The notes under the pieces: generated by a model
What the model was told of the DNA's origin: nothing
Seen by the model: the letters and a program-made list of their open reading frames with translations, nothing else
The model's database searches: none
Source of the DNA: Chlamydiota bacterium
Lineage (GTDB): Bacteria > Chlamydiota > Chlamydiia > Chlamydiales > RGXB01
Length of the DNA: 64,000 nt
Direction: 5' to 3'
Assembly (NCBI GenBank): GCA_016866495.1
Contig: VGMG01000001.1
Span: 69,486-133,485, forward strand
Translations under genes and position numbers: made by a program
Shown: in pieces, positions 46,655-48,724 of the stretch
Layout of the letters: the number at the start of each line of letters is the position of its first letter
Numbering within the stretch: position 1 is the first letter of the stretch

Positions 46655-48724
46655 ATGCGTTACGTTTTGATCGGATTGACACTTGTTTTTTCTTTCGCTT
46701 TCTCTTCAAAAAAAATGGAATTGATGACTGAAGGGGAGGTCCAGGCTTTTATTCAAAAAGATGAAAGTGGTCGTATTACAAAATTCAAACAAAATGGGGT
46801 AGAGTGGGCTTTTAATTTCGATTCAAAAGGGAGGTTAAAGAAAATCCATCGAGATAAAAGATTAGCAGTTGAGTACATTCGCAATCACCAAGATTACGAT
46901 CTCATAATACGCTCTAAAGACTTTTGCTATTGGATTGTAAGAGGAGATAAGCGCTTAGACTACGGGGATTTTGTTTCCCAAAAATCGGGCTACCGCCTTC
47001 TAGACGAGCACAATCGCTGCTATTTTGAGAAATTCATGCACGGTGTTGAGGTCAATTACTCAATTGCTGAAGGTTCGAGTAAAATCACCGTCAATCAAAG
47101 TACTTCGTTTGAATTAAAGGGTGATGCAGTGTTTAGCTCAAAAAAGAATGGATCAAATTGGCCTTTTGAGGAGCTCTTAATCGAGGGTACTGCCCTCAAA
47201 TATGACGAGACAAACGCCCTTATTGAAGCTCAAATATTCAATCAACACCATCGGTTTTTTTACGACAACGAAGACCAGCTTGTTGAAGAGGAGCTTTTAG
47301 GAAAAAAAATATGTCATAGCTACGCCCCGGGTAGAGGAAAAATTACGTCTGATAATCAAAGTTACAATGTCGTATTGGATGATTTGGAAAGGTGTAGCTC
47401 ATTATCAAGCGATGGAAAAAAATTCTCTTTCATGATGGATCCTTTTGGAAGAGTTCTTGAGATCTTACAGGAGGATAAGCCCCCAATTCAGTTATTCTAT
47501 CATAATTTTGATGAGATAGGTTCAATTCAAAATAATGAAGTCAAAGATTTTAGGTTTGTGCGCCATGAAGAGGGGTATGAAGAGCCCAAAACGCTTTTTA
47601 TATTTTCAGGTGGTAAGGGATATAACGTAAGGACGGATCTTTTTGGTAATATTGTCGAGCTGATTGATGCAGATAGTGGCCTATCGAAGGAGAAAGTTTT
47701 TTATTCCGCTTTTGGGGAATCTCTAAATGGACTATCGTCTATTTCTCCATGGGGCTATCGATCTAAAAGATGGTTAGAGGATCTTGATCTTTATCTATTT
47801 ACATTTCGATTCTATTCTCCATTTAAAGGGAAGTTTTTATCACCCGATCCAGCAGGATTTGATCACACATTGAATAGAACATGCTATTGCCTAAATAACC
47901 CCATCCGCTTTTGCGATCCGAAGGGGAATTATTTAGGTATACACCTGAATCGATCGCAAAAATACGCTGTTGGGGTAATTTTAGATTTTTTGGGGAAACA
48001 TTTACCTTTAACTCTTTCAAAAGGGTACGAACTACAGTGCTTTGCTGCCCGTTACATGGGTTTGGAGCAGCCTGAAATCTTTGAGCAAGATCACGCATTC
48101 GAAATCAACGAATCTTTAGGAGAAAAAGATACTTCATTTATTTTTGTAAACGGTATTTCAACTGAAAAACCTGTCGCCGAACATCTTTGTTACGACTTAT
48201 CTATGATGCTCAAACAAAAATTTCGTTGTGTGCATTTGGCCACTCAAGGTGCAGGAAGAGATCTTTTTAATTCTGTGAAGGAATATCTTGGAATAAAAAC
48301 TCCCGGTGTTTTGATCTTAGAAAACCTCATCCAAAATTTATTGAATGATCCCGAAAGAAAAATAGTGATTTTTTCCCATAGTAGGGGTGCGCTTGCGACA
48401 GATCTTGCCTTAAGAAATTTGACAAATGAAGAGAAACAAAGAATAGAGGTCTACTCTTTTGGGGGAGCGATTTTTATCCATCGAGGGTTTATGAAAAGGG
48501 CCAGGAATTTTGTCTCTAAAGGGGATCCAATACCCTTTATTTTAGACTTTAAAAGCTACATGTTTGGGGAAAAGTGGTTTGATGTAGATATTGAATTTCT
48601 CGATATTGGGGAGGGGGGGATCAGTTTTTTTGATCATGCGATTTTAGGCTCTACATATAGAACCCGATTGCACAATCTTGTCAAAGAATATCAGACTCAG
48701 TATTGTTGCGTAGATGTTGAATAA
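46655..48724 (+). CDS. Short Rhs/YD-repeat polymorphic toxin: Sec signal, few YD repeats, Rhs core ending DPKGN, and a C-terminal alpha/beta-hydrolase (lipase/esterase)-like domain.
   Basis: Signal peptide MRYVLIGLTLVFSFAFSS (ATG at 46655; track start 46610 is TTG). YD-like repeats (GRITKFKQNGVEWAFNFDSKGRLKKI, FMMDPFGRVLEI). Rhs core YSAFGE...WGYRSKRWLEDLDLYLFTFRFYSPFKGKFLSPDPAGF...YCLNNPIRFCDPKGN. CT domain has VIFSHSRGA (nucleophile elbow), GDPIP and FFDHAI. Confidence 0.8.
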   Translation: MRYVLIGLTLVFSFAFSSKKMELMTEGEVQAFIQKDESGRITKFKQNGVEWAFNFDSKGRLKKIHRDKRLAVEYIRNHQDYDLIIRSKDFCYWIVRGDKRLDYGDFVSQKSGYRLLDEHNRCYFEKFMHGVEVNYSIAEGSSKITVNQSTSFELKGDAVFSSKKNGSNWPFEELLIEGTALKYDETNALIEAQIFNQHHRFFYDNEDQLVEEELLGKKICHSYAPGRGKITSDNQSYNVVLDDLERCSSLSSDGKKFSFMMDPFGRVLEILQEDKPPIQLFYHNFDEIGSIQNNEVKDFRFVRHEEGYEEPKTLFIFSGGKGYNVRTDLFGNIVELIDADSGLSKEKVFYSAFGESLNGLSSISPWGYRSKRWLEDLDLYLFTFRFYSPFKGKFLSPDPAGFDHTLNRTCYCLNNPIRFCDPKGNYLGIHLNRSQKYAVGVILDFLGKHLPLTLSKGYELQCFAARYMGLEQPEIFEQDHAFEINESLGEKDTSFIFVNGISTEKPVAEHLCYDLSMMLKQKFRCVHLATQGAGRDLFNSVKEYLGIKTPGVLILENLIQNLLNDPERKIVIFSHSRGALATDLALRNLTNEEKQRIEVYSFGGAIFIHRGFMKRARNFVSKGDPIPFILDFKSYMFGEKWFDVDIEFLDIGEGGISFFDHAILGSTYRTRLHNLVKEYQTQYCCVDVE

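Follow-up and report, generated by a model that had tools for sequence, protein, structure and literature searches.

In the usual picture of an Rhs toxin, an unfolded toxin sits enclosed in a cocoon. The subject of this article is a member of the family in which most of the cocoon appears to be missing. It is encoded at 46655..48724 on the forward strand of a 64-kb stretch of DNA from an uncultured freshwater chlamydia (contig VGMG01000001.1), called the window below and numbered from its first base. The open reading frame (ORF) specifies 689 amino acids (aa) from an ATG, in four parts: a predicted Sec-type signal peptide, a YD/Rhs-like all-beta shell, an Rhs-associated core, and an alpha/beta-hydrolase domain. 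The name mini-Rhs is used for this ~690-aa type of Rhs protein with a short shell, and CT for its C-terminal domain. Together with a small lipoprotein encoded directly downstream, mini-Rhs is best read, with a probability of about 0.7, as an Rhs toxin, domesticated and shortened at the N-terminus, and its cognate immunity protein.

Polymorphic toxins of the Rhs/YD kind that depend on Sec and are followed by an immunity gene, assigned to a type II secretion system (T2SS) class, have been described (Zhang et al. 2012, PMC3482391), as have the WapA-type toxins (PMC12704120). Mini-Rhs shares with this group the signal peptide, the YD-type beta shell, the two-Asp core, the enzymatic C-terminal domain, and the overlapping downstream partner gene, while orphan CT/immunity cassettes are found in its relatives. 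It differs in the length of the shell (~330 aa as opposed to ~1,000-1,500 aa), in a CT that is not polymorphic, and in a fixed, vertically inherited locus in an obligate intracellular lineage.

The best structural matches of aa 22-425 are the Rhs effectors of type VI secretion systems (T6SS), with E-values of 1e-18 to 1e-16 and the same core motifs; the cocoon structures concerned are those of P. laumondii Rhs1 (7pq5), P. protegens RhsA (7q97), A. baumannii Tse15 (8uxt/8uy4), Tse5 (8cp6), and RhsP (8h8a). Unlike these effectors, mini-Rhs begins with a predicted Sec signal and has no chaperone context in the window, and its shell, only a quarter to a third as large, would be unable to enclose the toxin. 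No T6SS Pfam family, PAAR, VgrG, or Tc match was found among the ORFs of at least 150 aa in the 64-kb window, in agreement with a preliminary description of the locus, which had noted the absence of a PAAR/VgrG context. The same description had measured the protein against delivery by T6SS or as an ABC toxin. This is the wrong baseline for these Rhs proteins, because 39 of the 50 full-size (at least 1,200 aa) Rhs proteins that carry CT start with a Sec-like hydrophobic N-terminus. A further point of comparison is TcC, which supplies only part of a cocoon. The mini-Rhs core aligns residue for residue with those of the TcC proteins TccC3 and YenC2, and D398 and D421 fall on both autoprotease Asp positions. 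In contrast to TcC, the domain that follows is modelled as a folded hydrolase and not as an unfolded hypervariable region of the ADP-ribosyltransferase type, no TcB/TcA partner was found in the window or in syntenic loci, and neither the window nor any of 18 related loci contains a second YD-shell ORF.

Other comparisons concern the hydrolase. DUF687 (PF05095) is a Chlamydia family, recently recognised to be alpha/beta-hydrolase-like, that is reported to lack catalytic residues and to have a C-terminal transmembrane bundle (PMC11878206), and its members CT326, CPn0066, CPn0069, CPn0381, and CPn0882 are predicted inclusion-membrane (Inc) proteins (PMC3048545). CT and DUF687 have a homologous domain, and both are centred on Chlamydiota; unlike the DUF687 proteins, the window CT has an intact predicted triad, ends after the hydrolase without a transmembrane bundle, and sits behind an Rhs core. 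Serine-hydrolase toxins with an exported immunity protein are exemplified by Tox-ABhydrolase-1/2/3 (Zhang et al. 2012) and the Tle1-4 lipases with their periplasmic Tli proteins, and by analogy a periplasmic site of action would be implied for CT. In contrast to the Tle lipases, CT has no match to the Tle families (DUF2235, DUF3274, Tle4, and PLD families were all without a match in the Pfam scan), and its match to Lipase_3 is below threshold (E 0.014, 15.7 bits, cut-off 22). For a Parachlamydia protein, an ABhydrolase-2 domain with no accompanying immunity gene has been noted (PMC3482391). By these comparisons, which for T6SS and Tc genes cover the window and related loci, mini-Rhs belongs neither with the T6SS Rhs effectors nor with the TcC components, the Tle lipases, or, formally, DUF687. 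The Rhs toxin type as such is known; new are the short-shell size variant, the partner gene, and the homology between CT and DUF687. In the literature searched, there is no description of the short-shell architecture or of the hydrolase-lipoprotein pair, and Rhs-like orthogroups in Parachlamydiales receive passing mentions only (PMC6171736, PMC2811131).

Gene, Shell, and Core

The mini-Rhs gene is complete, and all of its regions are under purifying selection. A TTG at 46610 would lengthen the protein by 15 aa; the NCBI and JGI gene calls take the ATG. The protein is identical to an NCBI entry named 'RHS repeat-associated core domain-containing protein [Chlamydiae bacterium]', and the same 689-aa sequence is present on JGI and Logan metagenome contigs. 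Besides this sequence, a protein search found five diverged full-length relatives of 666-694 aa with 43-66% identity. An exhaustive search added representatives, and 11 mini-Rhs cluster representatives of 655-726 aa can be aligned over their full length. A scan of GTDB species genomes gave six mini-Rhs loci and one full-size Rhs relative (L015), six of these seven records being Chlamydiae, Chlamydiia, or Chlamydiales metagenome-assembled genomes (MAGs). The gene order is the same in every mini-Rhs locus read, namely His_Phos_1, mini-Rhs, a protein of ~158 aa, a protein of ~115 aa, and OprB, with the His_Phos_1 gene ending ~160 nt before the mini-Rhs start, and the whole neighbourhood of ~20 kb is collinear among relatives.

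None of the mini-Rhs loci examined contains a frameshift. The ratio of nonsynonymous to synonymous substitution rates (dN/dS, Nei-Gojobori, unsaturated pairs) lies well under 1 throughout, at 0.10-0.28 in the shell, 0.03-0.06 in the Rhs core, and 0.03-0.10 in CT. Identity to the window protein is 49-76% in CT versus 33-56% in the shell, and many shell columns are invariant among mini-Rhs proteins of 29-65% identity. The preliminary description had named one finding that would undo it, that the ORF was a fragment of a longer Rhs gene disrupted upstream. This is not the case: length, start, and upstream gene are the same in species-level chlamydial MAGs.

The predicted signal peptide, read from the sequence, covers aa 1-17 (46655..46705, forward strand). 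It reads MRYVLIGLTLVFSFAFS and is followed by SKK, with the cut predicted between AFS and S. Its hydrophobic 12-mer has a Kyte-Doolittle (KD) value of 2.48, and aa 2-16 form a low-confidence helix in the AlphaFold2 model. A hydrophobic N-terminus is common to the full-length mini-Rhs cluster representatives; P0004, which is truncated at the N-terminus, lies outside this comparison.

The reduced YD/Rhs shell (aa 22-349; 46718..47701, forward strand) is delimited by AlphaFold2, Foldseek, and collinearity. To sequence profiles, the YD repeats are hardly visible: TIGR01643 scores 16.5 bits (cut-off 15.8, E 0.009) with no single stretch passing, and the RHS repeat PF05593 scores 12.4 bits (E 0.22), under its cut-off of 22. 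In the AlphaFold2 model, aa 22-390 form a continuous array of beta hairpins with a predicted local distance difference test (pLDDT) score of mostly 85-95, about 17 hairpins being assigned to the shell. Foldseek matches the shell to solved Rhs, Tc, and teneurin cocoons with E-values of 1e-18 to 1e-12. The shell is collinear with the last ~370 shell residues of full-size (1,700-1,900-aa) relatives; for example, it matches aa 1153-1525 of a 1880-aa chlamydial Rhs ORF in which the core occupies 1509-1618. The mini-Rhs family looks like a full-size Rhs protein that has lost about three quarters of its shell and kept its signal peptide. Shell and core together span only aa 22-425, in comparison with at least ~1,000 residues for a closed cocoon. 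Of a normal cocoon, the ~330-aa YD sheet and its core would represent only the last third or quarter, and would be too small to enclose the 264-aa CT.

The Rhs-associated core (aa 350-425; 47702..47929, forward strand) directly precedes CT. TIGR03696 matches aa 350-424 (62.2 bits, cut-off 32.5, E 4.9e-17), which places the protein in the Rhs family, while NF041261, the equivalog for the enterobacterial RHS element core protein, scores 15 bits against a cut-off of 2000. Two aspartates of the core, D398 (47846-47848, in LSPDPAG) and D421 (47915-47917, in CDPKG), are separated by 23 residues. Their counterparts in the alignment with TccC3/YenC2 are the LSxDPAG Asp and the DPDG Asp, and both are invariant among the 11 mini-Rhs representatives. 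We take them to be the equivalents of TccC3 D651, which is named in PDB entry 6sue, and, presumably, D674. D398 and D421 are a putative aspartyl autoprotease pair, and cleavage would be expected just after CDPKG(N). Loss of the autoprotease was also considered on account of RFYSP in place of RYYDP, and was rejected; the Asp of RYYDP is not diagnostic, because TccC3 and YenC2 also lack it (RYYQP).

The architecture, profiles, and model agree with the earlier account of a Sec-signal-bearing protein with a much reduced shell and an intact core, and the core end that it had placed at about 47929 proved exact, N425 ending at nt 47929. Its view that the repeats are too few for a full cage is likewise supported, since only the final ~370 residues of a full shell have an equivalent here. 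Its statement that there are few YD repeats holds for the sequence profiles and fails for the structure, where ~17 hairpins are modelled.

The Hydrolase Domain and Its Partner Lipoprotein

CT (aa 426-689, 264 aa plus the stop codon; 47930..48724, forward strand) is classed as a DUF687-related alpha/beta serine hydrolase on the combined evidence of model, Foldseek, and conservation. Its model has a pLDDT of 90, a predicted template modelling (pTM) score of 0.85, and alpha/beta-hydrolase topology. The motifs FIFVNGI, FSHSRGA, GDPIP, and FFDHAI are all present. In the model, Ser576 (48380-48382) lies at a strand-turn-helix elbow, S-H-S-R-G, of the Sm-x-Ser-x-Sm type, Asp624 (48524-48526) follows the next-but-one strand, and His661 (48635-48637) is in the loop ahead of the last helix, all three codons being on the forward strand. 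Residue conservation was counted in a hidden Markov model (HMM) alignment of 156 CT-family members. Ser576 is conserved in all 156, and Asp624 and His661 in 155 each; among further notable residues (Asn499-Gly500 and Asp536), Asp536 is conserved in 153 and Gly500 in 152. Conservation of the predicted triad in this alignment is far beyond chance, and on the strength of the model the fold and the Ser576-Asp624-His661 triad can be regarded as established, as the preliminary description had proposed.

Comparison with solved structures gives a less specific picture. Among the matches that Foldseek listed for CT against the PDB, 164 at E <= 1e-3 are alpha/beta hydrolases, and the cutinases, carboxylesterases, PETases, dienelactone hydrolases, and lipases found are all generic matches with template modelling (TM) scores of 0.4-0.5. 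The best sequence and fold matches, to cutinase, esterase, Lipase_3, DUF900, and DUF676, are also generic and fall under the family thresholds. A substrate assignment from PDB sequence profiles was rejected, as these matches are marginal and confined to the elbow region (CE5 cutinase, E 0.04; fungal diacylglycerol lipases, E 0.5-1.7). An earlier leaning towards a lipase or phospholipase is not established, given generic matches and no Tle match; the real relative is DUF687. The DUF687 model matches 15 of 24 aligned CT-family members, with a best E-value of 1.5e-17. The window CT itself has no match even at E <= 10, and does not reach the gathering score of 25 bits. Its homology to DUF687 is transitive, as deduced through these 15 relatives.

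The CT family is large: of the 2,997 cluster representatives that an exhaustive profile search found at E <= 1e-3, 155 reach E <= 1e-30. A six-sequence CT alignment run against a word-indexed collection of 5.8 billion proteins gave no matches, which was treated as a limitation of the index and not as absence; single-sequence and exhaustive HMM searches did recover many CT relatives. An Rhs core lies immediately upstream of CT in 105 of the 156 sequences examined, including all 53 of at least 1,200 aa, and Pfam finds RHS repeats and DUF6531 in the long carriers tested. The few CT carriers with source names all come from Chlamydiae or Chlamydiota. By these associations, CT is a genuine and common putative toxin domain of full-size, mostly signal-peptide-bearing Rhs proteins. 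Within mini-Rhs, CT is the most conserved region and is not polymorphic. The variable toxin that had been implied for this position is not what is found: the domain is the most conserved part of the protein, inherited vertically at a fixed locus. One short carrier, P0007 (L004 6416-7780), has 454 aa, with ~190 aa before the end of the core and no signal peptide. It keeps an intact CT followed by a partner gene, and may be a further-truncated or orphan version.

The strongest functional clue is a gene that the preliminary description overlooked. It lies at 48714..49193 on the forward strand, its start overlapping the end of the mini-Rhs gene by 11 nt, and encodes an immunity-type partner lipoprotein of 159 aa, so assigned from linkage, hhalign, and HMM comparisons. 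Its N-terminus has a lipobox-like FILNG followed by an invariant Cys19, leaving ~140 aa in the mature form, and the partners at L004, L006, and L015 also have hydrophobic N-termini. Pfam and NCBIfam scans of the partner gave no match. It directly follows mini-Rhs at 12 of 12 mini-Rhs loci.

The linkage extends beyond mini-Rhs. In pairwise comparison, the partner shows weak similarity to the genes that come immediately after P0007 and P0008, two distant CT carriers; in hhalign, this similarity has a probability of 89% and an E-value of 2.4e-6 over 102 columns, in comparison with 0.3 for two controls. An HMM built exclusively from mini-Rhs-linked lipoproteins matches the immediate downstream gene at L004, L006, L015, L016, L017, L018, and L019, with E-values of 8e-9 to 2e-3, the upstream gene being a CT-carrying Rhs gene. 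In a reverse test, homologues of the L006 partner were retrieved without regard to context. All three that were looked up (four loci) directly follow and overlap a CT-family gene, which encodes an Rhs protein of ~1,670-1,880 aa wherever the contig is long enough. Thus, the partner family is found directly after every CT carrier examined, Rhs proteins of 1,700-1,900 aa included. Because of this linkage, which is the gene signature of a toxin-immunity pair, the lipoprotein is assigned as an immunity-type partner. The lipoprotein-type or hydrophobic N-termini suggest that the partners are probably exported, and the periplasm would therefore be the likely place where the hydrolase is held in check.

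At L006, a metagenome contig, the stretch 4829-6642 downstream of a 930-aa Rhs protein with the same CT contains a frameshifted partner gene (100 + 87 aa). An orphan CT fragment follows at 5631-6020, and an orphan partner gene that is intact at 6070-6642. This is a classic Rhs array of orphan CT fragments and orphan immunity genes. At L016, a 731-aa protein (7935-10130) with a weak match to HECT, the eukaryote-type ubiquitin ligase, is encoded directly after the partner of a 1865-aa Rhs protein.

Proposed Mechanism and Alternative Readings

A domesticated toxin with its immunity protein would work as follows. The mini-Rhs protein would be exported by Sec to the periplasm and lose its signal peptide. 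The short YD sheet and core would most likely be a scaffold for the two-Asp autoprotease, and perhaps also an anchoring or adhesion module. Autoproteolysis after DPKG would free the serine hydrolase, esterase/lipase-like by its fold, and it would be released already folded, because a sheet of ~400 aa cannot enclose 264 residues. The co-translated lipoprotein would bind and neutralise the hydrolase in the periplasm of the producer; if it acts there, the hydrolase should be able to attack a component of the bacterial envelope, either a lipid or another ester- or amide-linked one. T2SS, vesicles, and surface display are candidate routes of exit, and the toxin may act either on bacteria nearby or on the membranes of the inclusion or the host.

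Several points weigh against this interpretation. The residue after DPxG is canonically Leu; among mini-Rhs representatives it varies (N/A/G/R/T/L), and autoproteolytic cleavage could therefore be altered or lost. The signal peptide was called by inspection, and no solved structure is close enough to CT (TM scores 0.4-0.5) to define a substrate class. It is also conceivable that the partner works as a transit chaperone or as an inhibitor, and not as a competitive immunity protein. A fixed locus and a CT that is the most conserved part of the protein are unlike arms-race interbacterial toxins, and fit a host-directed or housekeeping role better. They also fit a domesticated role, which is possibly directed at the host or the inclusion. 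Furthermore, interbacterial competition is thought to be rare in obligate intracellular life, and chlamydial polymorphic-toxin-like proteins are mostly read as host-directed and without immunity genes, with rare exceptions (PMC3482391). Mini-Rhs, with its consistent partner gene, would be such an exception.

The window encodes a TLC-family ATP/ADP translocase (59305-60867, reverse strand, E 2.6e-135). Translocases of this family are a hallmark of obligate intracellular energy parasitism, and by this mark the lineage is obligately intracellular. This favours a host-directed effector, in which the hydrolase would reach the inclusion lumen or membrane or the host by Sec and T2SS, or in vesicles, and remodel lipids there; the lipoprotein would only protect the producer in transit, and the difference from a domesticated toxin would lie in the target and not in the architecture. 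Such an effector is a possibility to be taken seriously, if a tentative one. It would explain why CT is the most conserved part and why, in at least seven species-level genomes, CT is inherited vertically at one fixed locus, and it would be in line with the predicted inclusion-membrane location of DUF687 relatives in Chlamydiaceae (PMC3048545) and with the usual reading of toxin-like chlamydial domains (PMC3482391). However, a dedicated exported partner is kept with CT in every context examined, whereas such chlamydial toxins typically have no immunity gene (PMC3482391), and the orphan CT and immunity cassettes of L006 are a hallmark of interbacterial polymorphic systems. The conserved CT at a chromosomal locus among housekeeping genes might also indicate that no toxin is involved, and that an envelope housekeeping esterase, serving lipid or lipoprotein remodelling in the developmental cycle, was recruited from an Rhs cassette, with the lipoprotein as its regulator or foldase. 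Operons of a lipase and a lipase-specific foldase have an analogous gene order, and the apparent co-transcription with an outer-membrane porin points in the same direction. This is nevertheless unlikely, since the same pair of families occurs on Rhs proteins of 1,700-2,900 aa and in orphan arrays, which is toxin-immunity behaviour, and since the partner is small (~140 aa when mature), has no Pfam match, and was tied to foldases by none of the comparisons made.

The remaining alternatives concern the shell. Encapsulation could be preserved if the chamber were closed by a second YD protein, as in TcB and TcC, or by self-association. The partial cocoon of TcC and the purifying selection on the shell are compatible with this, and the structural matches include BC-component chains of ~660-690 residues (4igl_B, 6l7i_G) as well as the 675-residue 5kis_B. 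But there is no other YD/Rhs-like ORF in the 64-kb window or the syntenic loci and no Pfam match to TcA or TcB, and in the model a low-confidence linker leads to a hydrolase that is fully folded; a split or oligomeric cocoon is quite improbable. Still harder to sustain is the idea that mini-Rhs is a decaying remnant or a mis-assembled fragment of a full-length Rhs gene with a functionless N-terminal part. The shell does correspond to only the last ~370 residues of full-size relatives and evolves faster than the rest of the protein, and P0007 looks like a remnant of this kind. However, the length, the signal-peptide start, and the upstream His_Phos_1 gene are the same in all loci from independent samples, the reading frames are intact, the shell dN/dS is well under 1, and shell columns remain invariant at 29-65% identity, so that this idea is already largely refuted. 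A more far-reaching proposal, doubtful at present, is that the one-third shell is a minimal Rhs module that works without encapsulation as a Sec-exported device for autoproteolytic release or anchoring, and that the DUF687 Inc proteins descend from this toxin domain. Self-assembly, or exit via the OprB-type porin and the 115-aa protein, would possibly be part of it. If true, Rhs toxins would have a delivery route that depends on none of T6SS, Tc, and the Gram-positive wall.

In several species, purifying selection maintains a shell only a quarter to a third as large as usual, which suggests that an Rhs core can be put to use with no toxin encapsulated. On chlamydial Rhs proteins, both families, hydrolase and lipoprotein, appear to be widespread, and they offer a toxin-partner pair that can be tested. 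The DUF687 proteins found in human-pathogenic Chlamydia (CT326 and CPn0066-type) gain a first functional handle from their homology to a hydrolase with an intact predicted triad. Finally, the presence of an immunity-type partner in a bacterium with an obligate intracellular life prompts the question whether there is competition among environmental chlamydiae within their hosts.

The Apparent Operon and the Wider Window

Two further genes follow the partner. A conserved 115-aa protein is encoded at 49193..49540 (forward strand), its start overlapping the partner stop by one base (TAATG). It has 36-74% identity in the four loci compared, no Pfam or NCBIfam match, and was not seen beside full-size Rhs relatives. 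It was considered as a second immunity protein and rejected (E 0.3 against the immunity family). Overlapping it is the gene for an OprB-family outer-membrane porin (49476..50636, forward strand; PF04966, E 2.4e-17). A bidirectional hairpin resembling an intrinsic terminator, with a 9-bp stem and T runs on both strands, was read from the sequence at 50650..50670, and there is no convincing terminator-like site on the forward strand from 46655 to 50636. The four ORFs, which overlap or abut and have a terminator-like hairpin only after the porin, form an apparent operon. Because the whole ~20-kb region is syntenic, the porin and the 115-aa protein are not counted as functionally linked to mini-Rhs. 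A role of the porin as exporter was not adopted, the neighbourhood being collinear in any case. An OprB-type porin in a chlamydial genome is unusual in itself.

The rest of the window is chlamydial chromosome with housekeeping genes (GlmS, G6PD, CTP synthase, PFK, and GcpE). Three large ORFs, at 2448-8186 and 9587-15883 on the forward strand and 19767-23180 on the reverse strand, encode proteins of 1912, 2098, and 1137 aa without a Pfam match at E <= 1e-3, and are probably lineage-specific chlamydial giant proteins. On the reverse strand at 39415-45785, there are three paralogous amino-acid permease genes with a gene for a DUF2071-DCC1 fusion among them (43336-44382), an arrangement that is kept in relatives. 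A run of ORFs without Pfam matches, several with hydrophobic segments, occupies 50677-56808 on the same strand and may encode Inc-like or secreted proteins. Within it, tandem GGF(A/T)GVVSNRSDQL repeats make up the end of the ORF at 51760-52665, and VEEVVNGGQAA repeats are present in that at 52964-54124.

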